NCBI GenBank assembly: GCA_044892525.1
Contig: CM097886.1
Span: 114,576,001 to 114,640,000 of the forward strand
Reading direction: 5' to 3'
DNA: 64,000 bases
DNA from: Schmidtea polychroa
Lineage: Eukaryota
Positions 1 to 33,724 of the stretch are shown here, one piece after another; the first letter of the stretch is position 1; the number at the start of each line of letters is the position of its first letter. Both the position numbers and the translations under genes were made by a program. The notes under the pieces were generated by a model. It made no database searches. It saw nothing but the letters and a program-made list of their open reading frames with translations, and was not told the DNA's origin.

Positions 1-2
1 AA

Positions 3-3000
3 ATGCCATTCGGACTGACCAACGCACCAGCATCGTTTCAAAGGTGTATGAACTTTGTCACTCATGGAATCAAACAATGTATGGTATATATTGATGATTT
101 GTTAATCTATTCAGCGACATTTGAACAACATCTGGAGGATATCCGAAATGTATTTATTCGATTACGACAATGGAAACTCAAGCTCAAACCGTCAAAATGC
201 GACTGGTCAAAGGAAAAGGTCACGTTTTTGGGACACATAGTGTCAGCTAAAGGAAAGGAGCCAGATCCAAGAAACATTGAGAAAATAAAAACATGTCCAG
301 CACCGAAAACTGTCACCCAAGTTCAGGAATTTCTAGGATTATGCGGATACTATCGCAAATTTATCAAAAATTATGCAGGAATTGCAAAACCAATCCAGGA
401 ATTAGTAAAGAAAGACATTTCGTTCATTTGGGGGAAGGAACAACAAGAGGCGTTTGAAACGCTGAGAGACAAACTAATCGAAGCACCTATCCTCGTACAC
501 CCAGATTTCAAGAAACCATTTCTATTAGCAACGGATGCAAGCGGGTACGCGGCAGGCGCGATTCTGGGACAATTAGACGACGAAGGTAAAGAAAGAGTAA
601 TTGGATATTACAGTCGAACATTCAAAAAGCACGAGAAGAACTATTCGGTAACAGAACGAGAAGCATTGGCTATAATACAAGCAATCAAACATTTTCGATA
701 TTTGTTATGGGGACATGAGATATGTATAACCACAGATCATCAACCATTAGTGTGGCTAGGGCAACATAAAGAAGCGTCCAGTAGACTAATGAGATGGGCA
801 ATGCAGCTACAAGAGTATTCACCGTTCATAAAATTCAAAGCGGGAAGAGCGAATGCAAACGCCGACTGTATGTCAAGGTTTATTTTTCCAGATTTGGTAG
901 ATCCAGAAATGCAACGTATATGCCTGATGGTAGCAGAAGACCTAGATTTCTGCCAATTACGAAAAGACCAACAAGAAGACGCAGAACTGAAACAAATTAT
1001 CGATTATGTAAAAACAGGAAAGACGGAGGTATATGCGAAAGACCAAAAATTAAAAGAACATATGGATAAACACCGACACCGATATATCATAGAGAAAGAT
1101 TGGTTGCTGATAATGGATGGGGAAAAACGATTAATGTGTATACCGGAAAACCGACGGAAAGAGTTACTAACGCAATACCACGATGGGAGATTGGGAGGAC
1201 ATATGTCATCAAAAAAGACGTTAGCAAGAATGAAACAAAAATATTTCTGGCCTACCCTAACGGAAGACGTAACCGAATGGGTGAAAAACTGCATAACCTG
1301 TGCAACAAGGAAAAACACTGGATCGAAATGGAAAGCACCTTTGACGCCAATGCCGGTACCAATAGAGCCGATGACAATGATATCAATGGATGTAGTTGGT
1401 CCATTGCCAGAATCGGATAAAGGAAACGTTTATATTTTAGTGATTACAGACTTTCTCACAAAATTTCCAGAAGCATTCGCGATGCCAGACCAAAAAGCTA
1501 AAACAATCGCAAAAATCTTGGTCGAAGAGATATGTTGCCGTTACGGGACACCGAAGCAAATCTTGACTGATCAAGGAACTAATTTTATGAGTGAAATAAT
1601 GAGTGAGGTAACCAATTACTTCAAAATCGCAAAATTGAGAACATCACCGTATCATCCTCAAACCAATGGGATGACGGAAAGATTTAATGGAACACTTATA
1701 CAAATGTTATCAAACTACGTCGACCGTCACCAACGAGATTGGGACGAATATATAAACCTATGTCTTATGGCGTACAGAATGTCGATTCACGCATCAACGA
1801 AAATGAGCCCATTCAAATTAATGTACGGAAGAGAATGTAACATGCCAATGGACCTGGAATACCAACCACCGATATCGCAATACATGGAGATAGATGATTA
1901 TGTTACGAAATTCAAGGAAAGAATGCAGGAGATTTGGGAAACTGCGGGATTAAACATCAAGTTCTACCAGGAAAGTTATAAAGATTTACACGATCGAAAG
2001 AAAAACGTGAAGCAACATACGTTTCAAACAGGCGATTGGGTGATGATCGAGACCCCAGAATTAATTCCCGGAACCACAAGAAAGTTACAACGGAACGGGA
2101 AAGGACCATACGAGATCTTGTTCGTAGGCGAGACCAATGTAAGAGTGAAATTGGTAAATAATCCATTCACCAGGCCAATATACGTAAACGTGGCACGATG
2201 CAAATCAATTCCAAAAACAGCCACCAGTCAACCAGAAGGCCGTACATTAACCACACGTTCGCAAACCTACAGAATGAACATGATGCAACAACTCGCAGAA
2301 CCTATCACTGGACGATTGGGCATACAACCATCGGAAGCTGAAAAAATCGTACGAGAGGTAAAGATAAAATTACCCGGATGGGCAAAAGATCGATTAGATT
2401 TCGAAATATTAGGAGGATTATTGACGATGATCGAAAATTATGCAAACAGAGAGAGAACACATCCGTTATTACGAGTAGTCAAAAGCCAATGGCCAATATT
2501 ATTTACAATAACAGATCATTATGGAGATACACCATTACACAAGCTCATGAAAGTAGGTAACAACGAGCAAATACTAGAAACAATAGAAGCATTTCACGAC
2601 TGCAAGAGATCAACAGAACAAGAAAATAACCAAGGTTACACACCATTAATGATAGCAGCAAACAGAGGCAAAACAAAAGACATAATAACCGCATTACTTA
2701 ATACTGGATCAAAAATAACTACACAAGACCACGATCGGAAAAACGCACTACATCATGCTATCGAAGGGAAAAGTACCGAAGCGTTCACGTCGTTGATGGA
2801 GCTACTATCATATGAGGATAATCGAGAAGTCGGAAACATGTATGATGGATTATTAACAGCGATCAAAGAGAAACTGACAACAATTACCGGAGTATTAATC
2901 ACTTGGAGAAACCCAATTAAAAATAATTATATGATCAACTTAAACGAAGCATTCACGAGAGGAGAGAACACGCTTATGAGAGAAGCTATGAGAGGACATC

Positions 3001-3803
3001 ATTTATTCGAAATCCCGAATCAATTACTAGAACGAGGAATAACCTTCACAAATCATAAGGATGAGCAGTTATTAAAAAAGCGAATTGACACATTCGAAAA
3101 ATCAATATTCCAATTCATTACTCAGGTACGAAATAAATATTGGGGAACGGTAAGTGTGTTATACATGATGGACACGATGAACAACATCCGCGAGAATTAC
3201 CTAGATATTATTCAAATACTTACCGCAGAGGAACGAATCAATAATCCAACCGGAATGAAAATGAGAATAAGGCATGGGAAATCAAGAGAACCAAAGTCGC
3301 AAACGAACCATAAAATCGCAAATAAAGTCATCGAAACAAAATCAATGAGTATAGATCAAGGAGCAATAATATGCAAAGCGAAAGAAGTGTTCTTTGAGGA
3401 AATGCTAGAGCTACCAGATGAAGTAATATTATCAGAAATAATAAAAGCCGTACACACATACGCAAGAGATCAAACCACGGGTTTAGATATCGGGAAAATC
3501 AAAACCTTCTTACCTAGAGCATTTACGATGGTAACAAAGGATTCCAGAACACCTCTACAACAAGCAATACTGGTTGCAAAAGAAAATAGAGCAATAACGA
3601 TCGTGAGAATCCTTAGAGATATGGGCGAGGGAACCAACACGAAAAATGAACAAGGCGAAACGGCCATGATGTATGCAGCTATAACGAAAATACACCCAAA
3701 AACACTCCACATACTACATCAATCAGGATTGAGACTAGACGAAAATCAAACGAAGGGAACTCCACATTGGACTGGGCAACCATACAGCCAAACTTGGAAA
3801 TGA
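3..3803 (+). CDS. pol: Gypsy Pol (RT C-terminal part, RNase H, integrase) fused in frame to ankyrin repeats; 5' incomplete
   Basis: MPFGLTNAPASFQR and YIDD (RT); TDAS...TDHQPL (RNase H); HHCC zinc finger (HDGRLGGH...CITC); D,D35E core (SMDVVGP, TDQG, NGMTERFN); GPY motif. Ankyrin consensus follows: GDTPLH, GYTPLMIAA, KNALHHAI, RTPLQQAI, GETAMMYAA. Confidence 0.95.
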   Translation: MPFGLTNAPASFQRCMNFVTHGIKQCMVYIDDLLIYSATFEQHLEDIRNVFIRLRQWKLKLKPSKCDWSKEKVTFLGHIVSAKGKEPDPRNIEKIKTCPAPKTVTQVQEFLGLCGYYRKFIKNYAGIAKPIQELVKKDISFIWGKEQQEAFETLRDKLIEAPILVHPDFKKPFLLATDASGYAAGAILGQLDDEGKERVIGYYSRTFKKHEKNYSVTEREALAIIQAIKHFRYLLWGHEICITTDHQPLVWLGQHKEASSRLMRWAMQLQEYSPFIKFKAGRANANADCMSRFIFPDLVDPEMQRICLMVAEDLDFCQLRKDQQEDAELKQIIDYVKTGKTEVYAKDQKLKEHMDKHRHRYIIEKDWLLIMDGEKRLMCIPENRRKELLTQYHDGRLGGHMSSKKTLARMKQKYFWPTLTEDVTEWVKNCITCATRKNTGSKWKAPLTPMPVPIEPMTMISMDVVGPLPESDKGNVYILVITDFLTKFPEAFAMPDQKAKTIAKILVEEICCRYGTPKQILTDQGTNFMSEIMSEVTNYFKIAKLRTSPYHPQTNGMTERFNGTLIQMLSNYVDRHQRDWDEYINLCLMAYRMSIHASTKMSPFKLMYGRECNMPMDLEYQPPISQYMEIDDYVTKFKERMQEIWETAGLNIKFYQESYKDLHDRKKNVKQHTFQTGDWVMIETPELIPGTTRKLQRNGKGPYEILFVGETNVRVKLVNNPFTRPIYVNVARCKSIPKTATSQPEGRTLTTRSQTYRMNMMQQLAEPITGRLGIQPSEAEKIVREVKIKLPGWAKDRLDFEILGGLLTMIENYANRERTHPLLRVVKSQWPILFTITDHYGDTPLHKLMKVGNNEQILETIEAFHDCKRSTEQENNQGYTPLMIAANRGKTKDIITALLNTGSKITTQDHDRKNALHHAIEGKSTEAFTSLMELLSYEDNREVGNMYDGLLTAIKEKLTTITGVLITWRNPIKNNYMINLNEAFTRGENTLMREAMRGHHLFEIPNQLLERGITFTNHKDEQLLKKRIDTFEKSIFQFITQVRNKYWGTVSVLYMMDTMNNIRENYLDIIQILTAEERINNPTGMKMRIRHGKSREPKSQTNHKIANKVIETKSMSIDQGAIICKAKEVFFEEMLELPDEVILSEIIKAVHTYARDQTTGLDIGKIKTFLPRAFTMVTKDSRTPLQQAILVAKENRAITIVRILRDMGEGTNTKNEQGETAMMYAAITKIHPKTLHILHQSGLRLDENQTKGTPHWTGQPYSQTWK

Positions 3804-5491
3804 TCAGATTTATTTGCAAAAATGCGACAAAAGAAGAAGTTGAAAATATATGCAAAAACACATCTCAATTTCAATGGAATACGGTACGGAAAAATCTAGA
3901 AGCAATGAAATTGTTATTAACATGGAGAGTACCACAAAATAATAAATATGCGATAAATATAAACGAATTTTACGAAAACGGAGAAAACGCGATGGTAAAG
4001 AATACCCTAACTAAAGGGGGGACACCTAAAATTATCTTAATAGTATTAAATAGAGAAGACCTCAAATTCACGCAAAATCAAAACGAGCAACAACGAATAG
4101 GAAAACATCGTCGTATTCAATTGAGAGAATTAGTCAAGGAATGGAATAGAAAGAGACAAGCTGCAACGGGTAGAAAAGAGTTTGAATTCGAAGCAAAGTT
4201 AGCAAGGAACAGAGTGTTAACAGCATATCGCAGATTATTGAACGATATAAATGTCGAGGACGACATTTTAAACGACAGCGGGGGAGATAAACACGATGAC
4301 AATGACGGAAAAGGCCGAAAGGAGGATAAAGGGAAAAGAGAACCGGAAGAGGATAAACCGGAAAACAAGGATTCGGGTACGAGAAGAGAGGGAAACAGCC
4401 CGGGAACCAAGACCAAAGAGGAGGAAAAACCGAATAATGGAAAACAGAGGGTATGCCTACCGTTCACTAACAAAGAAATAGAAACAAATATGATCTTAAT
4501 GATAATCATGCTAACCATGATAGAGTTAGTAACAGCTCATGGAGGGACGAGAACGATAAAAGAAATCAAAGAAGCGGAGAATCAAGATAGCAAAGAGGAA
4601 GAACTAAAACAAGAAAAGAAAAAGCAAGCACAAGAGCAGCAGTGGGATTTAAAGGAAGAATGGGGCCTAAAGGAAAGGTGCATACTAGGAAGATGTATGT
4701 CTAGAGCGTATCAGAGATTAGTACTGATAAATGAGGACACAGAACCAATAACAGAGGTAAGAATACAAGAAGCATACCGAAATCGAGACGGGAAAAGAAT
4801 AACGAACGTAAAGGGAAAAGAGGTGCACCTAGGAAAAGGAGGTGAAGTAGTAATAACGCAACTCCAACCAAGAAAAGAACACAAAGTCTGTATTTCAAGA
4901 TTAGGACCAGGTGAGAGATGCCATCAATATGTGACGCAGCAGCAGCCCCCAAAGGAATACACGGTTTGTATCTGGAGGAACGAATCAAAAAGGGAATGCC
5001 GACGATACCCGGGGAAAAGAGGGAAGAAAAGAAAAAACAACGACGAAAAGGACGAAGGAGGAAAACACAAGAAAACCGGCGAGGAAGCCCAGGACAACTA
5101 CGTTTCAGAAGAAGAGATGGAAAAAATACAAAAGATGGCAAAGGAGGGTATGAACGAGGAAATAGCAAGAATACGAGAGATGATGAAAGGAAATGGCAAA
5201 AGAGGAAACGAGAAAAGTACAGAAGCGATATCAACATTAACAAACAAGGAAAAACCAGAGAGTATAAGCGTGAAGCAGAAGATGTGGATCAGCGGGATAA
5301 TAATAACAGGGGCATTCCTAATCATAACGGGGGGAACAATAAAAATAATTAAAGATAAACGACATCGCGGAGAACTAGAGATGACCCGAATCAGAAATTT
5401 CCAACATCGAGTGAAACGACCAAGTGATATCAAACAAGAACAGTGGGTGGAGGCCTGGAACGCTCAGCGCCCTCCAAAACCCCGTATATAG
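3746..5491 (+). CDS. Probable frameshifted continuation of Pol-ANK: one more ankyrin repeat, charged linker, internal signal-peptide-like segment, Cys/FN3-like ectodomain, TM helix, short tail
   Basis: The frame begins SNEGNSTLDWATIQPNLEMIRF (ankyrin consensus) where ORF1 loses ankyrin similarity; one extra A at 3742-3745 would join the frames. Hydrophobic MILMIIMLTMIELVTAHG at ~4490-4540; motifs ITQLQPRKEHKVCI and VTQQQPPKEYTVCI; TM MWISGIIITGAFLIITGGTIKII at ~5282-5350. Confidence 0.7.
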   Translation, partial: SNEGNSTLDWATIQPNLEMIRFICKNATKEEVENICKNTSQFQWNTVRKNLEAMKLLLTWRVPQNNKYAININEFYENGENAMVKNTLTKGGTPKIILIVLNREDLKFTQNQNEQQRIGKHRRIQLRELVKEWNRKRQAATGRKEFEFEAKLARNRVLTAYRRLLNDINVEDDILNDSGGDKHDDNDGKGRKEDKGKREPEEDKPENKDSGTRREGNSPGTKTKEEEKPNNGKQRVCLPFTNKEIETNMILMIIMLTMIELVTAHGGTRTIKEIKEAENQDSKEEELKQEKKKQAQEQQWDLKEEWGLKERCILGRCMSRAYQRLVLINEDTEPITEVRIQEAYRNRDGKRITNVKGKEVHLGKGGEVVITQLQPRKEHKVCISRLGPGERCHQYVTQQQPPKEYTVCIWRNESKRECRRYPGKRGKKRKNNDEKDEGGKHKKTGEEAQDNYVSEEEMEKIQKMAKEGMNEEIARIREMMKGNGKRGNEKSTEAISTLTNKEKPESISVKQKMWISGIIITGAFLIITGGTIKIIKDKRHRGELEMTRIRNFQHRVKRPSDIKQEQWVEAWNAQRPPKPRI

Positions 5492-5651
5492 AAAGGGATA
5501 TGACTGTATATAATTGTAAAAAGTAAGTATATCTTATGTATATAACAGTACTATATCTTTATATAAGCGCGGTATCAATATTATAAAATAACGGGGATCA
5601 TAAAATGAAATTAAATTTAGATAAGAGTTGAAAAGTGTATATAAATTAAGA

Positions 5652-5960
5652 ATGGAGCAAGGAAGTAACGAAATGAACCACAACACAGTAACCGAAGAAT
5701 TATGGAAGCAACAATGTGCCGTATTAGCACAATTAGTGTCTAATTTGCAAGAACAAGGATTGACGATGCAAAAGAACCTAATCGAGAGTATGAACAGAGG
5801 ATTTAGTTATTTGAAGATAATTGAAGACCAGAGGTTAAAAATCGAACAAATGCAAAGAGAAATAGAGAGGATAACTCAATATAGCCGAAGACAGGAAATC
5901 GAATTGGACAGAATGATGGAGGAAGCAGAACAGACAGAAATAGAAGACTGGTCAGAATGA
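5652..5960 (+). CDS. Element cargo ORF, short coiled-coil protein of unknown function
   Basis: Open frame with heptad-like E/Q/L pattern, same A-rich codon bias as pol, bounded by AT-rich spacers; ATG preceded by AG. Confidence 0.6.
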   Translation: MEQGSNEMNHNTVTEELWKQQCAVLAQLVSNLQEQGLTMQKNLIESMNRGFSYLKIIEDQRLKIEQMQREIERITQYSRRQEIELDRMMEEAEQTEIEDWSE

Positions 5961-6096
5961 CTAATGAGTAGAGAGGAGGGCGGACACGAAGCCGACTCTT
6001 CCGAACCATAAACCAAACCTAGCTTAAAATGTAAATAATTGTAAATAAAATATCGAACCTGTATCGATAAGAACTATATGTATATATAATTATAGA

Positions 6097-7485
6097 ATGG
6101 ATAAACGACAAAGAGAAGAGTTCAGAGAGATTGTCGAACAAGTCCGAAAATCTACAACGATCAGAATACACAAACATGTTATGTGCGGAATATGTGAAAA
6201 GTTGTTAAAGGAACCTCACCAAACCCAATGTGGATGCAGATTATGTAAGGAATGCATCAGTGAAGCAATAAAGAATAGACCACAGTGGTTCCCGGTGTGT
6301 AAAGAGACACTAATATCGAGTTTAGAAGACACTAACGAGGATAAAGCCGCAGTGAAAGACATGTTAAACACCAATCTGGGATGTAAAAATACCCCATGCG
6401 AATGGAAAGGAGTAATATGGAAAGTAGTGCAACATATGGGAGAATGTATGTACAGAATCGGCCAGTGTGAAAGGTGCCATAAAACCATTCGAGCAAGCGA
6501 AGAAAAAGAGCATCAAAGCCAGTGTGAAGAGAGACTAGAAAGATGTAAACATTGTGGAGAAATAGATACGTGGAAAAATCTCACCAGCAAACATCACAAT
6601 GTCCAAGAGGAAAAGGTATGTGCAGAGTTCAGTGGGGAATGCCCGAACGGATGCGAGGAAGGGAGAATAATAAAAATAGCCCAACACCTAAAGGAATGTG
6701 AAAGGAAAAGAATGACATGTGCACTCGGTAAATGGGGCTGTCAGAAACTACTACACCGAGGAGAGTTACCACATCATTTAGTAGAAAATGCTTCAACCCA
6801 CGCAGAAATGTGGTCGACTGCGTTACAAGAAAGTGAAGAGAAAGTAAAACAAATGGAGATAGAGATAACATCGTTGAAAGCGTTAGTCAAAGAACTACTA
6901 GAAGAAAGAGAAGCGTTCGAAGAAGCCCGAGCTAACATAAAGATGCAAATAAATCGTATAAAAATCAGTAATAATCAGGCCAAGGAGCTACATCGGAAAA
7001 TACAGGAAATAAATCTAAATGAGATAACCCCAACAGCACCTTATATATGGAAGATAACGGGAGTGAAAGAAAGAATACGGAAAGCCAAAACTGGGGAAGA
7101 GACAAGAATAACAAGTCCTGCATTCCATTCTTGGAAAAATGGGTACAAGATGAAAATGAGGATATATACCAACGGAGATGGAGCCGGATTGAATACACAT
7201 TTTTCGATATTTTTTCTATTATGTAAAGGGGAACGTGACGAGGTAATAGAATGGCCATTCCAGGCAAAAATCGATATCACAATGATGAATGACCAAAGCA
7301 TCCACGAACAAAGCTTCAAAACAACGGGAACCCAGCTGTGTTACCGGCGACCTACTGATGAGGAAGGAGCAGCATCAGGAGCACCCACGTTCATCTTACA
7401 GCAGAAGGTGGAAGAGATGACAAAAAACGACACAATATATATAAAAATGACAGTGAGAAGGGAAGGGAAGGGTAGAACGGAGTAA
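6097..7485 (+). CDS. traf: Intronless TRAF-family protein (RING, TRAF zinc fingers, coiled coil, MATH) inside the retrotransposon
   Basis: RING CGIC...CGCRLCKEC...FPVC; several C/H zinc fingers; coiled coil; MATH domain YIWKI...SPAF...GYKMKMRIYTNGDG...THFSIFF...EWPF...GAPTFI. 462 aa, uninterrupted. Confidence 0.95.
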   Translation: MDKRQREEFREIVEQVRKSTTIRIHKHVMCGICEKLLKEPHQTQCGCRLCKECISEAIKNRPQWFPVCKETLISSLEDTNEDKAAVKDMLNTNLGCKNTPCEWKGVIWKVVQHMGECMYRIGQCERCHKTIRASEEKEHQSQCEERLERCKHCGEIDTWKNLTSKHHNVQEEKVCAEFSGECPNGCEEGRIIKIAQHLKECERKRMTCALGKWGCQKLLHRGELPHHLVENASTHAEMWSTALQESEEKVKQMEIEITSLKALVKELLEEREAFEEARANIKMQINRIKISNNQAKELHRKIQEINLNEITPTAPYIWKITGVKERIRKAKTGEETRITSPAFHSWKNGYKMKMRIYTNGDGAGLNTHFSIFFLLCKGERDEVIEWPFQAKIDITMMNDQSIHEQSFKTTGTQLCYRRPTDEEGAASGAPTFILQQKVEEMTKNDTIYIKMTVRREGKGRTE

Positions 7486-7677
7486 CCCATCGAATAATGT
7501 TGTATATAATAACCTGTATATATCGGCGTATATAACCAATAAAATATTATATAATAATAGTATGAAAAACCCTAAATACGAAAACCCAAAAATGATGCGA
7601 AAATTTCCGAAGAACCAGTAACTAATGAATAAAATTTTTCCATAATAAAAAGATTAATCTATATCAATGATTTAGAA

Positions 7678-8733
7678 ATGACACAAGAGAGAATAACCGA
7701 AACTACGATAGCCCCAACCAATACCCACAAGACACAAATTCCCCGAGAATATAACGAAAAATGGAACAAAGTAATGTTCCAACTAACTAACCTCACCCGA
7801 AACTACATCAAAGAAGCTAGAGAAGATGAGAACAGTAAATATCAATGGCTAATCCACAATTTAAGAGAGGAAGCAGAAGCATGTAAAAGAGCATCAAAAT
7901 GGGATTCATTAGAAAATACCCGCCAAGAAGCACACAGCCACTACTTAAAGCAGCTAGTGCAGGAAGCGAGAAAGAGGCTCACTGACGAAAACGCAAAACG
8001 CGAAGCGGAAAAGCAAATAGAAGGAAGGAAAATGATGCATTTATTGGCAGAGGCCAGAAAATGGAAAAGACAAAATAGTGAAATGAAAAAAGAGATGAAA
8101 GAATTGCCCATGAGACTCGGATATGAAAGCGAACAGGGCAAATGGGAGGAAAATTTAATAATAAAGGAAGAACTGAAACGGTTGAGAAAGGTCGCCACCC
8201 GAAGCCAAACATGGCAGATGAAGGCCATGGAGTTCGAGCGACATTTGGCAATGAAATGCGACATAAGAGAGCACGAGAATGCCGCAATGGAGGAGATGAT
8301 AACCCAACAAGCAGGACGGGTTTTGGAATTAGTAAATCAGGTCGTAGAGATGAAACGAGACCTCAATGGATTACAGGGATCACTAGAACAAAGAAACATG
8401 GTCCTAGCTGGAAAAAACAAAAAATTAGAAAACGAGAGGAAAATGTATGCCGAAAATATCAAAAACTTGGAAATAGAAATTGAAAAATGGAAGGGCGACG
8501 AGAAAATCAAGGCCCTAGATAGACAAATAGAGATGAAAGACGAAGAGACAAGGTATCTCACCTACCTGCTCGACGAAGAGCTGAATATCACTCGAGCTCT
8601 AAGAGACGAAGTTAATGAATTGAGAGCTCAAATCCCCCAATATTACCTACCTTATGACCCTATTGCGATACAGTTGCATCCAGCGGTCGATAGTGATGAA
8701 GGTTATGTGGGACAGGAGGAAACCTTCGTATAA
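7678..8733 (+). CDS. Element cargo ORF, long coiled-coil protein
   Basis: 351-aa open frame, E/K/R/L-rich heptads, element-type codon bias, TTTAG just before the ATG. Confidence 0.75.
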   Translation: MTQERITETTIAPTNTHKTQIPREYNEKWNKVMFQLTNLTRNYIKEAREDENSKYQWLIHNLREEAEACKRASKWDSLENTRQEAHSHYLKQLVQEARKRLTDENAKREAEKQIEGRKMMHLLAEARKWKRQNSEMKKEMKELPMRLGYESEQGKWEENLIIKEELKRLRKVATRSQTWQMKAMEFERHLAMKCDIREHENAAMEEMITQQAGRVLELVNQVVEMKRDLNGLQGSLEQRNMVLAGKNKKLENERKMYAENIKNLEIEIEKWKGDEKIKALDRQIEMKDEETRYLTYLLDEELNITRALRDEVNELRAQIPQYYLPYDPIAIQLHPAVDSDEGYVGQEETFV

Positions 8734-8904
8734 AGGTGAATAAAAAGATAAAAACAAAAAAAATCGGGACGTATATCCCAAACAAAAAAAAATTAAAGTA
8801 TTGTAAAAGTATTCAAGGGATTGTAACCCAAACTATTAAATTTTATATAAATGTATAAGTATAAGTCGTACTATAGCGCACCATTAACTGTACATATTAT
8901 AGAT

Positions 8905-9594
8905 ATGAAAATCGAGGAAATGATAGAAATCACGAGTGACGTGGAAGAAGGAGAAATTGTAACAGAAACAACAGAAACACAAACGCTAGAAGCAGAGTTG
9001 CGAGCAGAGAAGTGTGAAAACGAGAGACTGGTAAACAAATACATAGAAGATCGAAAAATAATAAAGATACTAAAGAAAGAATGCAGAGTGCTAGGGGAAG
9101 TAAAAAGAGAAACAGAAGAGGAAAACGAATGGCTGCAAGAACAACGAAAACGAGGGAGAAATTGGGAGAAGATTGCGGAAGAATTATGGCAAGAAAGGGC
9201 CAGTAGAAAGGCAGACGAAGTGATTAGCGATTATTGGAAAACCGAGGCACGGAAACACCAAGAAAGTTTGAAGGAGTTACAACTCCAACTGCACCAAAAA
9301 CAAAAGGAATGCGAGATAATGAAAAGAATGAACAGCAAATACCACGAAATCGACGACGGAGAAGACGAGGAAAGGGGAAATGATTTCTTACAAATACTAA
9401 ACCATAAAAACCTGGAAAGAGCAACGCAGGAAATAAAAGTGTTAAAAGGGAAAATAAAGTTCCTAGAACAACAGATAGACGAAAGAGATAAGCAACTAGA
9501 AGTACTGCCAGAATTGAGAAAACGGGTAATAAAAGCGGAAACGGAAGTGATGAGAGCGTCTCAGAAAGCCCGTAAAAAGAAATCCCGACCATAA
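8905..9594 (+). CDS. Element cargo ORF, coiled-coil protein with basic C-terminus
   Basis: Open frame (track start 8851; ATG 8905 after TATAG preferred), E/K-rich heptads, ends RKKKSRP. Confidence 0.7.
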   Translation: MKIEEMIEITSDVEEGEIVTETTETQTLEAELRAEKCENERLVNKYIEDRKIIKILKKECRVLGEVKRETEEENEWLQEQRKRGRNWEKIAEELWQERASRKADEVISDYWKTEARKHQESLKELQLQLHQKQKECEIMKRMNSKYHEIDDGEDEERGNDFLQILNHKNLERATQEIKVLKGKIKFLEQQIDERDKQLEVLPELRKRVIKAETEVMRASQKARKKKSRP

Positions 9595-9649
9595 ATTAAA
9601 AAGGGATAATTGATGTAAATAAATGTATATAAAATGTTCGCATATTAGT

Positions 9650-10303
9650 ATGTGGCCGGAAGCAACCCTGATGACCCTAATAATGATAACAATAAACGGA
9701 ATGCCCATGCGGCAGTCAGCCCCAAACCCCTGGGAGAACCCCGAGAAACAGCAAAGCCGATTAATCAAACTGAAAAATGAAAGAAAACCCTCCAACAATA
9801 TCCCGAAACAATGCTGGAACAAAGCCGTCTGGCAAAAGACCCAAAGACAACTGAATCTGCAATCTCAAAGAATCGAACAACTTGAAACCCTCCTACATGA
9901 ACAAACCACCCAACAGTCTCTGAAAGAAACCCTCGTAAAGAAAGAAATAAAAGAAAGTCAAGCCCTATTCTATGTTACCATTAGTGAAACCATCCTCATC
10001 TGCGCGCTAATCATCTGGAAGACATATGATATCTATCGAGCATGGAACAGAACCCAACCACTATCCGAGAGACCCAAAAGAAAGAACCTACGATTCCGAA
10101 ACGTACATAAACAAGCAGTACATTGTCAACAACCGGACCCACTCGACCAAATACAACAAAATCTGTCTTCTAATCAAATACCCGTTACAATCCAGCTCTC
10201 CACAGTAACAACTTCAACCAACCCTTCAAGCCAGAATCCCAGAGATCCCCAAAAGGTAGTTAACCGAAACAGTAGTAACATGTCGAACATTGAAATCCCG
10301 TGA
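9650..10303 (+). CDS. Element cargo ORF, predicted type I membrane protein (signal peptide, coiled-coil ectodomain, TM, S/T/P/Q tail)
   Basis: MWPEATLMTLIMITING N-terminus; TM ALFYVTISETILICALIIW; low-complexity tail. Confidence 0.65.
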   Translation: MWPEATLMTLIMITINGMPMRQSAPNPWENPEKQQSRLIKLKNERKPSNNIPKQCWNKAVWQKTQRQLNLQSQRIEQLETLLHEQTTQQSLKETLVKKEIKESQALFYVTISETILICALIIWKTYDIYRAWNRTQPLSERPKRKNLRFRNVHKQAVHCQQPDPLDQIQQNLSSNQIPVTIQLSTVTTSTNPSSQNPRDPQKVVNRNSSNMSNIEIP

Positions 10304-10854
10304 CAGTAATTTGATGTATATAATTCCGGTCACCCTAAGTGGCCACTGCTTGCTTATATTTGTCTTATTATCTGTTTAATTAAAGTATTAGTCAGTTAAT
10401 TTGTTTTTATGTCTGTACGTATTTTGATTGTGGAAGTTTTGTGTTATAACAACAGAGGTATGATTAGAATGTATGTCATTATGCGAATTGCGGGACGCAA
10501 TTTTGATGGGTCCCCGAGTGATTTGTTGGGCTGAATCGAAGGGTAGCTGGGAAATTAGGTCGAATTTAACTAAAGTAAAAATAAGAAATAAAATAAATAG
10601 ATTGACGAATAAAATAGAATAGAACATAAGAAAAACAATAATTAGAAATAAGAATTAAAACAAAAAAAAATATGAAAATAAGAAAAATTAAAATAGGACA
10701 ATAGAATGACAGAAAATAACGCAAAATATAATAAATAATAAGGAAATTAAGGAAAATAAATAAAAACATAATTTTAATAAAGAAAATAAGAAGAAATAAC
10801 TCTAAAACAAGGAAAATAAATTAAATTAATAAAATTAAGCGGTACTCAATTCTG

Positions 10855-10920
10855 ATTGGTCCGCGCAAACAAAAAATTAATATATAAGCAGGCATTAAAA
10901 TCATAATAATTACAGTTAAT
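10855..10920 (+). promoter_or_regulatory. LTR promoter: inverted CCAAT (ATTGG 10855-10859), TATA (TATATAAG 10881-10888), Inr-like CAGTT at ~10913
   Basis: ATTGG and TATATAAG occur in the same order in the LTRs at 24823-24860 (-) and 33575-33600 (-). Confidence 0.75.
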
Positions 10921-10936
10921 CTAACCACCTCAATAG

Positions 10937-10983
10937 GTAAGTAAAGTTTAAAATAATCACAGTTAATCTAACCACCTCAATAG
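10937..10983 (+). other. Predicted 47-nt LTR mini-intron (GTAAGT...CTAAC...ATAG) whose last 25 nt duplicate exon 1
   Basis: Direct repeat ACAGTTAATCTAACCACCTCAATAG at 10912-10936 and 10959-10983; the first copy is followed by GTAAGT. Confidence 0.7.
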
Positions 10984-13215
10984 ATCCATTCTACGACGAA
11001 ACCGCAATTAAACAATCAATCCACAGCAACTCACGAGGACTATTCCGGAATCCAAGAAATTTCAGCTGAATCTAGATAATTTCGAACATTTATTACTTCG
11101 ACACAGTACCCCTTTTCGACTCAGCCTATACCTCTATTAAACACTCGGTAAGGATCTTTTGATTTCATAATTTGAATTTTAAAGTAATAGTTATGCATAT
11201 GATTTAATTATAATTTTAATTTAAAGAACTTGTTTTCTTTTCGTTTGATTTCGAATACTTGGTGTAATTTAACGATTTAGTATTTAACAATAAATGATTT
11301 GCTATGAATGATTGATTTCTAGGAATTATTGACTTTTATGAACTGTTTTAATGAGTTATTATTTAATGCCATTCAAATTTTCGAGAAACGTGGCGTTGAT
11401 ATACTCTAGTGTCATGGTGTGAGGTGCCTTCGGGAGCTCCACCGGTGGGCCTAGGGTATTTCAATCACGCAGCTGATTCGGGCCGTAATGTGGGGGCTTC
11501 CTCACGGGTCCGTCGCTGAAGGTGCGACTAAATCCTATAGGAAAATGTTGCCAGAAAATTGGTAGTCGTATAGCGATGGAAAATAGAGATGTAGGAAGAA
11601 ACGTTCAGAGAGTTTTTATGTATTCGCGCAGTGATTGAGGGTGTCACACTATCGTCTCAAGATATCGTTTCTACTAAGCCCAAATTTCCTCTATCGCTCT
11701 AAAGCTCTATGTAGGTTGCTCATCGAGAGTCGTTCAAATGCTATAGGTGACATATCTTCGATGCTCGTATGTTTCACTCGAAATTTATACCTACTATGTT
11801 TTATGGCCTTCCGTGTTATTATTTTCCTCGTCTACGTGTTCTCTCAAAGATGAAGCTGCAGGGGATTACAGAAAATAAGTAGTCTCGGATGAGCGTTAGA
11901 ATTCCATGAACAAGTTGTCTCGCATAAAATTTTGAATTACGTAAAACGGGTTACTTCAACTATTTTTGAATTGTATAAAATGATTTACTTCAATTGATTT
12001 TAGAATTATATAAAGGGATTAACTTCCACAAATTTTTCTAATTACATAAACCGGTTAGTGCCAAATAATCTCAAGAGTAAAACGAAATCAAATCGAGTCA
12101 AAAAATATATTTTTTTTTACAAACCAATCTAACATGATAATCCTTACCTAGTAAATATAAATTACCCGTGTTTCATGGAGTTGATAATCCAGCGAGGATA
12201 GGTAGGAAATCTCCAAAATATCGGGAACGGATCAATAAACCGCATTTGAGGAGTTGAGAAGTTCCCCCTGGGGGGCAAATTATATCCAACTCTTGCGATA
12301 CCGAGAATCATAATTTTTCCAGCATTTCCGTGAGAATTAGTATGACATCATCATGAGCAAGGAAATGTGAGCATCTGTGCAGTGGGTTGATCGAGATAGT
12401 AGCCAGAGAACATGCCAGCATGTAAACAGTTGAGGGCATCAGTTAGTCATTAGGAGTGGAATTAAGTATGAGAAATAAAAACTTGCATACGTCACCCGTT
12501 TTCAGACACACTACAGTAGCTAATCACGGTGTGTAGATTCACACCGACTTGTACTCATAACAAACCAGACCGGACGTGTCAGCTGGAATTTTTGGGTTAT
12601 CAAATTAAATCACTCGCAGTCATTAGATTCCCACTGGTCGGAACTAATAGCCAACTGTCAGACTGATTTTGTCTACTTAGTAGGATTAATTTAGTTATTA
12701 TCTCATGTTGAATAATTTGTCGCCTATCATAAATAAATAATTAAAAATTTTTTTTTAATGTCTTCCCGTTCATCATAAATGAACTAATTAAGAATAATTT
12801 ATGGATTTCTATTCACCCTAAATAATTAATCTAAAATTAATCGACCTACGTACAGGATACATTCATCGAAACGATTTGTTAGGAAAAGTCGGCAATGTAA
12901 TTCAACTCTCTTCAAACGTTAATTACTAACTTCAAGCGATTTAGATAACCGTAGTTTCCTCGACCTAGAATTCCTCTCACCAGTAGTAATACCTCTCCTT
13001 ACTTGTGCAAAATCGTGCTTGACTGATTTATTTTCTTATAATTAATGACCCAAAGGGAACGAGGACCCATAGCGCAGTTGAATTTCTTTGGCTGATACAC
13101 CCATTCTTGTCTATGAAACCAACTATGATCAGTAAAATATAAATGTGACCAGACGACGACCTTCTAATTGATTTGATTTGTTGTTCATTTCCATCTTTTC
13201 TTGCAGTCACCCAAG

Positions 13216-14064
13216 ATGTTACCCAATTCCAAGACCATTCTCAGACCTTGTTTCTCTTGTTCAGACAAGAATTCAATCATCAAGGATCTGCAGGCCCAAA
13301 TCGGAAAGTACAAGAGAAAAATAGACGAGTTAGAGGGGACATGGTTTAGTCCTACCCAGATGAAAGAGGCTCAGAAGAAGCTGCACCGCAGCGAGCACTG
13401 TCGAGATGCGCTAATTTCCGAAAGTCGGGCGCAGAGAAGCCTAATAAAGGAGCAGTCGGAGGCGCTGCACAAGTTATACGTCCAAGCAGCAACCACTAGG
13501 AGAATCGCGAAGATCCCAATTAATGAAGCCAGTAATCTTTTTCCAGCGCACCACGAGATCTCGGGCGGGCCTTCATCTCCACCTGGGAAGTCCTGCCATG
13601 GGTGCGTGGAGACCGAGCTCTCTCCCAGTGGTCCAGACGTTGTATTCACCGGAACTAATAAAGTGCAGCCAAACACCGCATCGTCCTCAATCGTGCAAAC
13701 CCCAACAGCTTCAAAACCTAAACGTCGGCAACTGTCGCGCGCCGAACGAAAACGAAAGCAACGAGAGCGGGCTTCCATCAAACGGATTCTACCATCAACC
13801 GTCACCCCAGTCGACGGCAACAGCAATCCAATAGTAGTCGATCTAACGACCGGAATCTCAGGGCGAGTCATCTCCGCCGCCGGGGTAACATGGGAAGAAA
13901 ACGCCGCCGAATTCTTTGATTTAAACGAGTTACTCGCCGACTCGGAGTGGGAAAAATGGGAATTGCTCCGTAAACTGGCCTCATCTTCTAGAGAGACCTG
14001 GACATCTTCTGACATCATTGTTTACCCTTGTGTTTTCCCTATTCTTAGGAATTTTGGTATATAA
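13216..14064 (+). CDS. LTR-encoded 282-aa protein (CxxC + coiled coil, Arg/Lys-rich motif, acidic-aromatic C-terminus), predicted spliced
   Basis: Intact ORF. Polypyrimidine-CAG acceptor at 13204-13206, donor GGTAAG at 11147-11152, AATAAA at 14096-14101; all are conserved in the solo LTR. Homologues at 21762-22505 and 30791-31646. Confidence 0.8.
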   Translation: MLPNSKTILRPCFSCSDKNSIIKDLQAQIGKYKRKIDELEGTWFSPTQMKEAQKKLHRSEHCRDALISESRAQRSLIKEQSEALHKLYVQAATTRRIAKIPINEASNLFPAHHEISGGPSSPPGKSCHGCVETELSPSGPDVVFTGTNKVQPNTASSSIVQTPTASKPKRRQLSRAERKRKQRERASIKRILPSTVTPVDGNSNPIVVDLTTGISGRVISAAGVTWEENAAEFFDLNELLADSEWEKWELLRKLASSSRETWTSSDIIVYPCVFPILRNFGI

Positions 14065-14520
14065 GTGTTCAATGTACTTGTATAATAATTCTGACAATAA
14101 ACCATTCTCGTCTATATATGTGTTTTTGTTTATCTTAAAATAGTCGATCTGAAATTGGTGAATAACATTGAGAGTCGTAGAAAATGAGGAGCATTAGTCA
14201 GTTGGCAACCCCAGCTAGGAACCTTGCGATGGGGTGATGGAATGATTAGACGTAAGTCCTTCTATCGGCAGTCAGGGTTGGGAAGTCGAGGCCTCAGTAA
14301 GGAGTAGTCCGAAGGAGCTGGCTCACCTGCTTACTGGCGTCTCGCCGGCATAGCACAGTTCCAACGTGAAGCAATTCACGGGTGCTATGTTGGAATGTAG
14401 GTTATGTGCGGGTCCTGCTTGGCGATGACAAAACGAAGGACGAGCGAAATCGATGTGGGCATTCATCCTCTAGACTGAAAGCTGCACTAAAAGGGGTCAT
14501 CCGAGTAGCTACCCGCAACA

Positions 14521-17500
14521 GTATGGACTCGATAAACATAATTTAATATCAAGTTTCGTTGTGAATTCTCTCATCAATCCTATTTCAAACGCATTTCCAC
14601 AATCAACTCTTACCTCATTTAGGCATCCAAATTTTAAAATCCATTTTTCTAAAATCGTTTTCTTTATTGTTTCTTCATCTTGTCTTGTTATAGCTATCAA
14701 GTATTGATACTTTCTTTACTAGTCTATTATACCCAATATCTACTTCTTACGTCATTTTGTTTTTTGCATTGGTCCACATATATCCACGAATATAATTTCG
14801 AACATTTCGTTTGATTCTAGTTTTTTAGTGGTTCCTTCGTTGTAATTGTTATAGCCTTGGTTTTTTGACAAATCTCACAACTTCGAATAGTTTTCTGAAT
14901 CTGACTTCACAGGACTTTCCCAATATACCTATCATTCGTATAATCAGCTATCTTTTTCGACCCTAGCATGACACAATAGTATTTCCTTTATGATTTCTTG
15001 TATCTCGTTTTCTGGTATCATCGTTTTCTTTCGTGCTTCTTCTTTCAAGTTTCCTGGTTGATTGGTGCTTCTCCCTTCTTCTCTGAATGAGTCTAGTAAT
15101 CTAGTTTTAATCTTTCTTTTCTTAGCTTCTTTGTGGGCCATTTGACATTGAACACACGCTTCACATTTAGGTCTGGACACCATGTCTGCATTTTGGTGAT
15201 TAACACCTTTTCTATATTCAGCGATTATATCCAAACTGCTCAAATAATTGATCCAGGTTTGGAATTGTGAAGTATTTGGCTTCTTGGTTGTCATCATAAA
15301 CGTGATCGCCTTGTGGTCTGTCCTTAGCGTGAATCTTCTTCCGTAGAGATAGTGCTTAAAATGAATACAAAAATAATATACCACCAATTGTTCCTTCATT
15401 GTAATTCAATATCCTTTTTCATGGTTCGTCATCGAGTGTGATCCATACGCAATTACTCTCTCCTTTTCATCTTTATTTATTTGTGAAAGCTCTGCTCCAA
15501 TGTTATCAAAACTGGCATCAGTATCTAAAATGAACTCCTTTCTCAGATCCGAAAAGCATAAGATCGGTGCCGTTGTGAGTGCTAACTTCAATCCCTCGAA
15601 TACGTTATTCGTTCCTTTTGTCCATTCCACTCTTGTGTTACTCGGACCGATACATAATTGTTCTGACATCCTTGCTTTCTTTTCATACTCACTGATGGAT
15701 CTTCTATAATAATTGCAAATGCTTAGAAAACTTCGATGTTTCTTTACGCAACTTGGCTTCCCAAAGTTTTGTATAGCCTGAATCTTAGAAGGATCGGTCT
15801 GTACTCCTTTTTTGCTGATTATGTGTTCTAAGAATCTGATTTCTTTCTGTATTATTTGACACTTTTCTGAATTAATCTTTAGTCCTGCTTCTTCTATGGC
15901 TTATAATACTTTACTGAGTATTGTATAATGTTTTTCTTTATTGCTCGAATAAATCAGAATGTCATCCAAATACACCATTGCTCCATTTATTTTGCCTATT
16001 ACCTTTGTCATCATTTCCTGGAAAGTACCTGGTGCTGCAGCAATTCCGAACTGCATTCTATTGAAACAGTATTGCTCTTTCTTTGTTGAGAATGCTGTTT
16101 TCTCTTGCGATTCTTCGTCTAACTCCACTTGATAATATGCATTACCAAGATCGATTGAGCTAAAATAAACGGACACTCTGAACAAATCTAACATCTCGTC
16201 TATGTTTGGCATTGGGAATGCCTGCCTCTCTGTTACTGCGTTCAGCTGCCCGAAATCCAAGCATAGCCTAATATCTTTTTTATCTTTATTTCACACGCAG
16301 ATTAACAGCGTGTTCTATGGGGAGTTGCATTTCCGTATAATCCGTTTTCGTACAAATTTTGTAATGCTTCTTCAATTTTTGTTTCCAAATTCAATGGTTG
16401 ACTATATGGTTTTATGTTTATTGATTCACCTCTTGTTATTATCTTATGTTTTACTAAATGCGTTCGACCCACATCCCATTTATCAGCCATAAACACGTTT
16501 CCACTGTTCGTTATTATTTCCTTTAATTTACTATCCTCATTAATCTTAAAATGTGCCAACGTTCGCTTCAACCTTTCTCCATCCTTTATTTGTCTGATGA
16601 CTTTTGGTTCAATGTTACAAATATAGTTCTTGTCTTTTTCATTTGATTCGATATCTTTCCTTTTTACAAGCCAATATCCAAATGTTTCTTGTAATCCTAT
16701 TCCTCCAATCATCTCTGGGGTCACTTTCTCCGCCACAATGAATCTAACTTCCCTGGAAATATCTCCGATAGACACTTTAACCTTTGTTATTTCAATAGTC
16801 GCTATCGTACTTTCGTTTGCACATCGTAACTTATTGTCGCTTCTCATCAACTGTTGTCCTCGTAATTTGTTAAAACAGTTCACACTCATTACGTTTATTC
16901 GTGCTCAGGTATCCAATAAACAGTCGAAAATTTCTCCATTCATCATAACTGTTACACAGGGTCTTCCCGTAGCTTGTTTTACACTATTTCTACCTACCCG
17001 TTTCAATTGTTCCAGTTCTTTCCACTTCCTCGTCAAACTTTTCTCTCCTTAGGAACCTGTATACTTTCTCACTTCCCTTTCCTACATTCTCCCACTTTTC
17101 TACCCCTTGAGGATATTCCATCCACTTTTCTGTTAGTATATGGCTCCAACCAACTCCTCTACTGGCGGAGCCCTGTTGTTTTGGTACGTCCTACTAAAAT
17201 TATCTTCATTTGTCTCAACGCACGATTCCATTTCCCCTTCTTCTTCGATTCCTTTAATCCGGCTGTATCTGTTTCCTGTCGGTCTTTGTTTCTCTATCGT
17301 TTTCTTGTAACTCGACTTTGAATAACATTCTTCAGATATATGACCATTTTTGTTGAATCTTTTACACCGTATTTCTTGACATAACCTTCTTATATGACCT
17401 TTGCCACAACCAAAACATTTTGGCACTTTTTTATCTGGACAATTCCTACTTATATGTCCGCTTCTGTGACACGTCCAGCACTCTATCTTATTTCTTACTG

Positions 17501-18175
17501 GACAGTCTATTTTAGTGTGGCCTGTTTTGTGGCATAGCCAGCACTCTGGTTCTTCTCGTCGCCTTCCTTCTTCTCTTTCATCTCTTTGCTTGTACTGTCC
17601 TCTTCTCTGTGGATCCTGATAGACCACTCTTGCATAACTTTTCATAGCGTTTATCTGATCTCTCTGTTTGTCAACTTTATTCATCATAATTAATGTTTCC
17701 TTTATTTCCTCTGTGCTTTTTATTTTTACCAATATTACTTCTTTCTCAACTTCTTTATTCTCAAACAACTTGTTGGCAAGGTCCTCCATTTTTTTAAATA
17801 TGTTTCAATCTCTTCGCCTCTTCTTTTATAATTCAATAAACTTTCCATATCATTTATTACATCTCTTTCTTAATCAAATGCCATTCGTAACTTGACTTGA
17901 AATCCCTCTGCTCTTTTAACTGTCTTAGCATATTTCTCCAATAGATCCTCGTCGATCATGCATGCAGTCAATCTTTTCTGTTCTTTTTTATTGATGCCTT
18001 TAGCATCGAAATAAATCTGGCATCTTCTAATGAATTTTTCTAAACTTTCACCTTGCCAGAACACCTTTGGCAATAATCTTTCAGTAATCACGTCAGTGTT
18101 TACCGCTGCCACCATATTATAATTCTCATCCGTTACAACATTAACATCTGGTTCCAAATCACTAAATAACTCCAT
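14521..18175 (-). mobile_element. Decayed conventional Ty3/gypsy element (gag with CCHC knuckles, protease, RT, RNase H, integrase), interrupted in IN by the giant element
   Basis: CWLCHKTGH and CWTCHRSGH knuckles; LLDT*A protease site; YLDD; DTDASF; fragmented by stops and frameshifts. Confidence 0.9.
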
Positions 18176-18616
18176 AAATTTTATTCAATAAATTTTAGAC
18201 TCAAAAACTTGTCTTTCTTATTTTTGTTATTTAAAGAAATTTCCATTTTCCTTTTTTCAATAAAAATATTTTTTTAAAATTTAACAAACTTTCTAATTAA
18301 ATCTCTAAGAATCTATCAACTTCCTCATAACTTGTTTATAGTAATTGATAAAATTCATTTTTATAATTAAAACAGAAATTTTATAAAATATACATAACTG
18401 ATATCTAAAATAGAGTATAAATTAAAATAATTCGATTTTGTTAATATGTATCAATAATATAAACTATCACATGTGGGATTGTTGCTCATTTTTACTATTA
18501 ATTCTTCAAAAATACTAATTTAATAGGTTAAATTTCATTATTTTAGCATAATAATAATTAATCTAAATTTTTATGCATTTCAGCAGGTTGAAAAAAATTT
18601 CCCAGTCTAAATATCA

Positions 18617-19216
18617 ATGGCATATTCCAGATCTTTTGGAAACGTTTGGACACTTTTAAAAGAAAACGCATTTCAACAAGTCGACATATCTGATGATATT
18701 TTGTGCTTAATTTGTAAGAAAATTATGGTCAATTCACAAAATGGACCATGTGGTTGCAGATACTGTTTGGAATGCATAACAAATCATCTAAATGAAAACA
18801 ATCATCAATGCCCTGGCACTACAGAACTTTGTGAAAATGAACAATTAACTCTTGATAATTTGCAGACTGATAATGCTATTAATGTGAAAATTTCAAGAAC
18901 TGTCGTAAATTGTCCATTTCAAAATTGCCATTATCAAAATGAACTTAAACTTATTGGAGACCACATAATGGCGTGTAATTTCCGTGAAATTAATTGCCCA
19001 CTTACCGAAATCGGATGTAAAAAAATGAATTTGACCAGTGATTATATGCTAAATCATTTTAAATCGGAAATCGTTTCTCATTCAACATTATTTTTGGAAT
19101 GTTTCGATAATATGAAAAATGAAATTGAATCTCAATCAAAAATTCTAAAAGAAATGAAAGAAGAAAACCAATTAATGAATGAGAAAATTTTAGCACTTGA
19201 ACAAGCAAATCAATCG
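18617..19216 (+). CDS. traf: Host TRAF gene, coding exon 1 (RING, zinc finger, start of coiled coil)
   Basis: CLIC...CGCRYCLEC...CPG RING; CPFQNC and CPLTEIGC fingers; phase-0 GTAAAT donor at 19217; upstream TTTCAGCAG acceptor near 18588. Confidence 0.85.
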
Positions 19217-19675
19217 GTAAATTTTAATTAGACACATTTTCATTCGTTAAAATTTTAATAATTTTATTTTGTAAATGCTAACTAATTTTTGAGTGATCTA
19301 TTTAAAGCATGTAAAAATTGGTTTAAACGAGATATTTAAAATTTATATAATTAAATAATTATTCAATAAAAATAATTTTAAATAAAAATTTATAATTTTA
19401 TTTAAACAAACAATTGTTCCATAATATTTGTGTGATATTGGAATTTTTTTGATTTATTTTAAAATTTAAATAAGGGAAAAATGCAATTTTAATCAAATGC
19501 AATATATTACATTTATATTTACTATTTTTTTAAATATTCATATTTAATTATATTTATTTACATTTAATTTGTAAGATTTTTAATTTCCTTATTTTAAATA
19601 TGTAATTATTTGAGTTTCTAGTTTTTAATTGAGAATGTTTTGTGGGCTTCTTCTTACATATAGCTTTTAACTCTG

Positions 19676-33400: not shown

Positions 33401-33720
33401 TACATTTTCTCCTTTCTTTGTTCGCTGTGATGCTAAAATTTGAAGGATGATTGTTGAACTGGTTCCACAATTGGATCTGTGTAAGAGTTTGGTAGATTAA
33501 TTAAATTGAAATTTACAATAAGATTTTACCCGTGTAAGAGTTTGGTAGATTAAGGGAATTGATCAAGTGATTTTCTTATATAGTAATTTTTGTCCAATCA
33601 GGACTTAGCTCGTGTGTAATATGGTGTTTTTCTCTTATTTTGTGCCTTTTTAATTGTTTTTCTGAGTTAATTATCTATTTCTTTTGGTTAATTTATTAAA
33701 TAGTTTAATCTTTATTTTTC
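30500..33720 (-). repeat. LTR of a third, more distant giant-gypsy family (5' end deleted, 3' end not resolved)
   Basis: Same order as the 10524 LTR: A-rich U3, CTGATTGG, TATATAAG, duplicated exon/mini-intron followed by ATCC, then TTCTAG-T-ATG of a homologous ORF. Confidence 0.7.
30791..31646 (-). pseudogene. Diverged homologue of the LTR-encoded ORF with one 1-nt frameshift near 31410
   Basis: RPCISCADKN...KKRIDTLESTWFSSSQMKE...EHCRD matches RPCFSCSDKN...KRKIDELEGTWFSPTQMKE...EHCRD. Removing one C gives TIKNQSEALYKVY, matching LIKEQSEALHKLY. The C-terminal half is different and acidic. Confidence 0.8.
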
Positions 33721-33724
33721 CTCC

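Follow-up and report, generated by a model that had tools for sequence, protein, structure and literature searches.

Giant long terminal repeat (LTR) elements that carry many accessory genes raise the question of how open reading frames (ORFs) lying 20 kb from the only promoter come to be translated. We addressed this question in a stretch of 64,000 nucleotides (nt) from Schmidtea polychroa (GCA_044892525.1, contig CM097886.1, positions 114,576,001 to 114,640,000 of the forward strand), hereafter the window, where five cargo ORFs sit in the 3' part of a 28.5-kb Gypsy LTR element. An AG stands one or two nt ahead of the ATG of each of these ORFs, a feature that is real and conserved, and the reading of these AGs as 3' splice sites is well supported by sequence comparison. 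The initial annotation had proposed that such acceptors yield monocistronic messenger RNAs (mRNAs), either by splicing of LTR leader exons to alternative terminal exons with separate poly(A) sites or by spliced-leader (SL) trans-splicing; comparison across copies and with a second family upholds the AGs as putative acceptors, and indirect arguments favour LTR-leader cis-splicing over SL trans-splicing.

The five ORFs follow the polyprotein on the same strand, the second of them being TRAF-like, and are separated by intercistronic spacers of 55-192 nt. Positions are window coordinates, on the plus strand unless stated:

5492..5651, plus: spacer 1, with four TGTA, ATTAAA at 5610, donor-like GTAAGT at 5523-5528 and candidate acceptor AAG at 5648-5650
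5652..5960, plus: cargo ORF 1, 102 amino acids (aa) here and 119 aa in four other copies; no Pfam match; 32% identity to family-B cargo 1
5961..6096, plus: spacer 2, with TGTAAATAATTGTAAATAAA at 6030-6049 and candidate acceptor TAG at 6093-6095
6097..7485, plus: cargo ORF 2, TRAF-like (RING, MATH), 462 aa; Pfam MATH E=3e-25; at least 92 copies
7486..7677, plus: spacer 3, with two TGTA, AATAAA at 7538, 7628 and 7644 and candidate acceptor TAG at 7673-7675
7678..8733, plus: cargo ORF 3, 351 aa; no Pfam match; 32% identity to family-B cargo 4
8734..8904, plus: spacer 4, with four TGTA, AATAAA at 8739, an upstream in-frame ATG at 8851 and candidate acceptor TAG at 8900-8902
8905..9594, plus: cargo ORF 4, 229 aa from the AG-proximal ATG; no Pfam match; 24% identity to family-B cargo 5
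9595..9649, plus: spacer 5, with TGTAAATAAA at 9614-9623 and candidate acceptor TAG at 9646-9648, 29 nt past AATAAA
9650..10303, plus: cargo ORF 5, predicted membrane protein, 217 aa; hydropathy peak at residue 109; no Pfam match

The junctions AAG-A-ATG (5652), TAG-A-ATG (6097), TAG-AA-ATG (7678), TAG-AT-ATG (8905) and TAG-T-ATG (9650) were all found where they had been claimed. Compared with shuffled spacers, an AG 0-4 nt before the ATG is more frequent than expected (5/5 sites, P=0.003), as is YAG, Y being a pyrimidine (4/5, P=0.0015); the background of AG in the same position before polyprotein-internal ATGs is 32-33%. Under a strict rule that admits only first in-frame ATGs, the window alone gives 3/5 (P=0.18), so that any significance must then come from conservation and from the second family. 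Out-of-frame ATGs lie 11-47 nt before starts 1, 2, 3 and 5, and splicing would remove them. An unrelated neighbouring cassette has an AG at 0/4 of its ORF starts. L080 holds at 2856-6556 four closely spaced same-strand ORFs with neither acceptors nor a confident Pfam family, possibly a DNA-virus-like element.

To follow the sites across the family of the window copy (family A, at least 92 copies in the genome), we read 70 copies, 30 from one set of matches and 40 chosen from the 92, mostly more diverged ones, with 0, 0, 1, 2 and 4 of them lacking a usable match at sites 1 to 5. The AG 0-4 nt before the ATG is present in every copy that could be scored (70/70, 70/70, 69/69, 68/68 and 66/66, respectively), with an AG-to-ATG spacing of 1, 2 or 4 nt. 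At sites 2-5 the base at -3 swaps between T and C only, CAG replacing TAG in 3, 12 (of 68) and 7 copies at sites 2, 4 and 5, and at site 1 the 23 of 70 copies that lose AAG gain a TAG one base upstream (TAG-GA-ATG). Genome-wide, the TRAF site shows 147 matches with the A of the acceptor and 0 with another base. Spacer 5 exists as several dissimilar types that have only TGTAAAT(AAA) and YAG in common. The pattern of variation looks like that of a splice site rather than of a start context.

The same arrangement recurs in a sister family (family B) that carries a BIR-RING ORF, for which 150 matches were scored and five copies read, the cargo starts being scored in copy E3. In this copy the first in-frame ATG of all six cargo ORFs has an AG 0-3 nt upstream (6/6, P=0.0025), five of the six with YAG (P=0.0003), and the ORF carrying BIR has an acceptor like the other cargo starts. 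Four cargo proteins are homologous between the families at 24-32% identity, and as DNA the two cassettes match over just 58 nt of coding sequence and 27 nt at the TGTAAATAA motif, the other spacers not being alignable. Taken jointly, window and family B give AG at 11/11 starts (P=7e-6) and YAG at 9/11 (P=6e-7); the strict rule gives 9/11 (P=0.002) and 7/11 (P=0.0002), and the YAG enrichment persists when conditioned on the Kozak purine at -3 (P=1e-6).

By its match to the description of Burro layout and domains, the element is of the Burro type, the giant gypsy-like LTR elements of planarians also called GYPSM1. Its LTRs are paired, of 4.0 kb each, the 5' one lying 10-14 kb upstream of the window, and its 28.5 kb are somewhat below the >30 kb described for Burro. 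Upstream of the window, Pfam domains follow the order pre-gag RING ORF, zinc knuckles, viral fusion glycoprotein and protease (PR); in the window they continue with reverse transcriptase (RT), RNase H (RH), integrase (IN) and ankyrin repeats. Thereby gag, the env-like fusion domain, PR, RT, RH and IN belong to one polyprotein region, which forms long single frames in other copies and is broken into pieces in the window copy; in L031, about 8-9 kb upstream of the window, the gag acceptor and gag start are apparently missing from this copy, whose polyprotein is in several pieces. The extra domains ankyrin, MATH/TRAF and RING are all present (Pfam), whereas the Burro1 marker, a BIR-RING (B-IAP) ORF, is not, since Pfam finds no BIR among the five cargo ORFs; BIR belongs to family B, which is 81% identical to family A in pol. 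The interval 3800-5491 is not a separate cargo ORF, because in copy L008 a 3104-aa frame sharing its stop makes it the in-frame end of the polyprotein. The remaining parts of the element in the window are:

3..3803, plus: RT, RNase H, integrase and ankyrin part of the gag-env-pol polyprotein (Pfam); gag zinc knuckles, fusion glycoprotein and protease upstream of the window
3800..5491, plus: C-terminal part of the polyprotein, out of frame in the window copy, in frame in copy L008
10524..14520, plus: 3' LTR, 99.7% identical to the 5' LTR
10881..11153, plus: predicted LTR promoter and leader, with TATA at 10881, donor 1 at 10937, intron 1 at 10937-10983, exon 2 at 10984-11147 and donor 2 at 11148
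13204..14064, plus: LTR ORF, 282 aa from the ATG at 13216, with T-rich acceptor CAG at 13204-13206
14096..14101, plus: predicted main LTR poly(A) signal, preceded by TGTA and followed by a T-rich element

Such acceptors would need a donor, and the LTR offers candidates. Donor 2 occurs in 19 of 20 family-A LTRs, and the exception carries an insertion; the LTRs are of several types, six of them being 68-79% identical or unalignable in pairwise comparison. In family B, 8 of 10 LTRs have a GTRAG donor 77-90 nt past the TATA word. No exonic ATG occurs in 15 of 19 family-A leaders. Intron 1 (47 nt) is missing in 4 of 20 LTRs, in three of them exactly so relative to a close relative; its tail duplicates exon 1 (window 10910-10983; L161, L164, L168 and L171), and splicing or recombination between the repeats would give an equal outcome. 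Just upstream of donor 2, in the region of 11128-11137, GACTCAGCC is kept across otherwise diverged LTR types, possibly as an AP-1-like site or a splicing enhancer. The LTRs and the last cargo ORF come in several very diverged types around an internal cassette that is >90% identical (20 LTRs compared), which suggests LTR swapping by recombination.

A candidate acceptor precedes every element ORF examined. A T-rich YAG lies 5-10 nt ahead of the start codon in all 17 LTR ORFs found among 20 LTRs (three without a usable match), the pre-gag RING ORF is preceded by an acceptor in both families, and a T-rich acceptor stands ahead of gag in 16/16 (A) and 6/6 (B) copies found, 4/20 and 4/10 stretches having no usable match. 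Past the gag acceptor, 659 (A) and 498 (B) nt are free of ATG, where 8.6 and 7.9 ATGs are expected (P=0.0002 each, two copies tested); the stretch is ATG-free in 15/16 (A) and 5/6 (B) copies and freely variable in length, as expected of a scanned 5' untranslated region. We considered, and ruled out, that the gag acceptor opens an in-phase ORF (27-106 codons across copies). In both families the gag frame itself is already open for 103-115 codons upstream of its first ATG and shows many synonymous changes there (copies L008, L003 and L002; L136-L154 and L176-L185), which suggests a non-AUG start of gag; two diverged copies have an early stop in this upstream frame.

Regarding the 3' ends, the initial annotation had relied on AATAAA, which is present in the spacers at 6044, 7538, 7628, 7644, 8739 and 9618 and is not above chance, its enrichment being non-significant in family A as in family B. 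Spacer 1 has ATTAAA only in the window copy and AATAAA in 65 of 70 copies. The motifs that do exceed chance, TGTA and GTAAATAA, had not been named before: TGTA occurs 16 times in the window spacers against 5.7 expected, a count reached by 0/1000 dinucleotide shuffles, and GTAAATAA 3 times against 0.4 (P=0.009), while the spacers of family-B copy E3 contain 23 TGTA against 10.6 and 7 TGTAAAT against 0.7. TGTA upstream of AATAAA is the CFIm element. The proposal of separate poly(A) sites draws its support from TGTA and GTAAATAA and not from AATAAA counts.

We also looked for traces of spliced RNA. No joint or loose end at an acceptor appeared among 17 of 173 loose ends and 21 of 715 pieces, these being contigs from four runs of uncertain kind on positions 1-10520; the LTR lies outside that stretch and leader joints could not appear, so this is no evidence either way. 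Nor was an SL joined to an acceptor among 17 of the 173 loose ends (short contigs, runs of uncertain kind). A contig start at 7675, the G of acceptor 3, was discarded as a splice hint, being explained by an A/G difference at 7705 that is common among copies (27/42) and would break the contig. A contig joint 6050-9637 was likewise discarded: its ends are not GT-AG, and the motif common to spacers 2 and 5 accounts for it. Of processed (spliced) DNA copies, none turned up either at the TRAF acceptor or at donor 2 of the window LTR type, against 147 and 47 unspliced matches.

The explanation that we favour, and regard as probable to a modest degree, is that the LTR leader is cis-spliced to one ORF or another, leaky poly(A) sites behind the ORFs ending the transcripts. 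A single LTR promoter would transcribe a short leader, whose exon 2 would be joined through donor 2 to cargo acceptors 1-5 over 19-23 kb; the pre-gag RING ORF, gag and the LTR ORF would be nearer targets of this exon. Each mRNA would be cleaved at the TGTA/AATAAA site behind its ORF, leaving one ORF per molecule; the internal sites would be weaker than that of the LTR, so that part of the RNA reads through and a minority, unspliced and uncleaved, would serve as genome. If this holds, the cargo genes would be expressed apart from the full-length genomic RNA, and exact junctions are predicted. A bolder version would have Burro elements run an adenovirus-like late unit, with one LTR leader, eight or more acceptors including that of gag, a regulated poly(A) site for each ORF, all proteins made from spliced monocistronic mRNAs and a genomic RNA specially protected from splicing and cleavage; this we put forward tentatively, its chances being short of even.

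Several points weigh against LTR-leader splicing. The mechanism is inferred from sequence, no RNA junction or poly(A) end having been seen. The copy counts are not independent events, because copies share ancestry, and the 11 sites are not fully independent, because four of the five family-A cargo ORFs have family-B homologues. Upstream of the AG-proximal ATGs, ORFs 4 and 5 have in-frame ATGs at 8851 and 9623, both without AG, that of ORF 4 being kept in 66/68 copies. The cargo acceptors have weak pyrimidine tracts (37-58% Y). As for the leader, 4 of 19 in family A have an ATG at the presumed start site, the absence of ATG from the window leader is not significant alone (P=0.11), and in family B the leader exon has a weak-context ATG in 8 of 10 LTRs. 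The six AATAAA compare with 3.9 expected from mononucleotide shuffles (P=0.18) and 5.9 from dinucleotide shuffles (P=0.55), and the T-rich element that follows the LTR site has no counterpart at the internal ones (10-35% T downstream, against 50%). Spacer lengths of 55-192 nt agree with the intervals in flatworm operons (about 100 bp in the accessible text of PMC8629364). Finally, the consensus donor at 5523, found in 69/70 copies, is unexplained and keeps an internal leader in play.

The rival that survives best, although we consider it unlikely, is an operon whose read-through RNA would be cleaved at the poly(A) sites between the ORFs, a host SL being trans-spliced onto each AG; if true, a retroelement would be using host operon machinery. 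Known planarian SLs end in AUG. An AUG supplied by the SL would not be in frame with the ORF at any of the five window sites, the AG-to-ATG spacing shifts between copies, and in the ATG-free, length-variable stretch past the gag acceptor such an AUG would open an upstream ORF of 27-106 codons. The AATAAA of spacer 5 lies only about 25-30 nt before the AG, which leaves no room for SL2-type resolution, and the conserved LTR donors would go unexplained, though the LTR ORF alone could account for them. Parasitic-flatworm SLs are likewise reported to end in AUG (PMC12582326, accessible part). Nevertheless, flatworms, Schmidtea among them, are documented to use both operons and SL trans-splicing (accessible parts of PMC12582326, PMC10899757 and PMC8629364), the lengths of the spacers fit same-strand ORFs no more than 300 nt apart, and the two modes, using the same acceptor signal and often sharing sites, can coexist.

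Foamy viruses use an internal promoter and a local leader for their accessory genes. A similar promoter near the end of the polyprotein, with a local leader spliced from donor 5523 to the cargo acceptors, would make use of an AAA/GTAAGT (5523-5528) that lies 31 nt past the polyprotein stop in 69/70 copies, upstream of all five acceptors and with no counterpart in spacers 2-4, and its introns would be short. We hold this to be improbable: the nearest TATA-like words, 16-37 nt before the donor, leave almost no exon, in the single family-B copy inspected, spacer 1 contains no GTRAG donor, and the upstream ORFs and gag would need the LTR leader regardless. Of equally low probability is that the cargo ORFs are each driven by a promoter of their own, or are reached by reinitiation on unspliced RNA, the AG being a translation-context motif. 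Spacers rich in TATA-like words, a purine at -3 in all window starts and the MDG1 group, whose accessory ORFs are expressed with no splicing seen (accessible text of bioRxiv 2025.03.14.642691), speak for it; against it, the YAG enrichment holds given that purine, the AG slides within 0-4 nt and swaps T and C at its -3, the neighbouring unrelated cassette has no such AG, and the sole TATA-consensus words before ORFs 2 and 5 lie 14-24 nt from the ATG, too close. Chance in AT-rich spacers combined with a post-hoc choice of ATGs, for which the strict result of the window and the 32-33% background could be cited, is very improbable given family B, where no ATG was chosen, and the conservation pattern across copies.

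The element type is already known, and the conserved acceptors would add a variant of a known expression strategy. In the adenovirus major late unit and in parvovirus B19, one promoter and a common non-coding leader serve many alternative acceptors and several poly(A) sites. The proposed unit resembles them in its promoter-proximal leader with conserved donors and in the putative acceptor before each ORF; it differs in that DNA viruses need no full-length RNA genome, while the genomic RNA of the element would have to pass every internal site. HIV, foamy viruses, fish epsilonretroviruses and the gypsy errantivirus env splice an LTR leader to accessory ORFs or env, with acceptors near the start codon. 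The mRNAs of complex retroviruses share the 3' LTR poly(A) site, whereas here each ORF has an apparent 3'-end motif of its own and gag too has an acceptor. Among Drosophila elements, the MDG1 group likewise has an accessory ORF upstream of gag and an internal alternative poly(A) site seen by long reads, but no splicing was seen there and it has two small ORFs against seven or more here (bioRxiv 2025.03.14.642691, accessible text). Flatworm SL operons resemble the cassette in their same-strand ORFs <300 nt apart with an acceptor before each (accessible parts of PMC12582326 and PMC8629364); they consist of host genes, while the array of the window is part of an LTR element that has leader donors of its own.

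With Burro/GYPSM1, as described in the accessible text of PMC6431247, the element shares giant size, long LTRs, env between gag and protease in one polyprotein, ankyrin, TRAF/RING cargo and accessory ORFs; BIR cargo occurs in the sister family, whereas the window family, at 28.5 kb, is without a BIR ORF. That text does not mention accessory-ORF expression, splicing or poly(A), nor does the accessible part of PMC8532177, according to which such elements rise upon piwi knockdown, mention splicing, and the literature searched, which did not include the two main Burro papers, yielded no account of Burro transcript processing or splicing. For Burro1, an anti-apoptotic protein of use to the host has been reported (summary in PMC13465017, accessible part).

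Elsewhere in the window, a solo LTR of the same family lies on the minus strand at 21204-25184, 78% identical to the LTR of the element. A truncated and diverged Burro-like piece (30500-36950, minus) consists of a portion of the env region fused to an LTR, which contains an LTR ORF of its own. In the diverged third LTR, the ORF does open with CTAG-T-ATG, as the initial annotation had stated, at 31651-31644 on the minus strand, and the cargo cassette is absent from five stretches beside relatives of this LTR. A host-like TRAF-type RING ORF with a T-rich acceptor ahead of it occupies 18617-19231 in AT-rich DNA near the element, and decayed ordinary Gypsy elements (RT, RNase H, zinc knuckle) were found at 14500-18200 and, on the minus strand, at 57800-59950.

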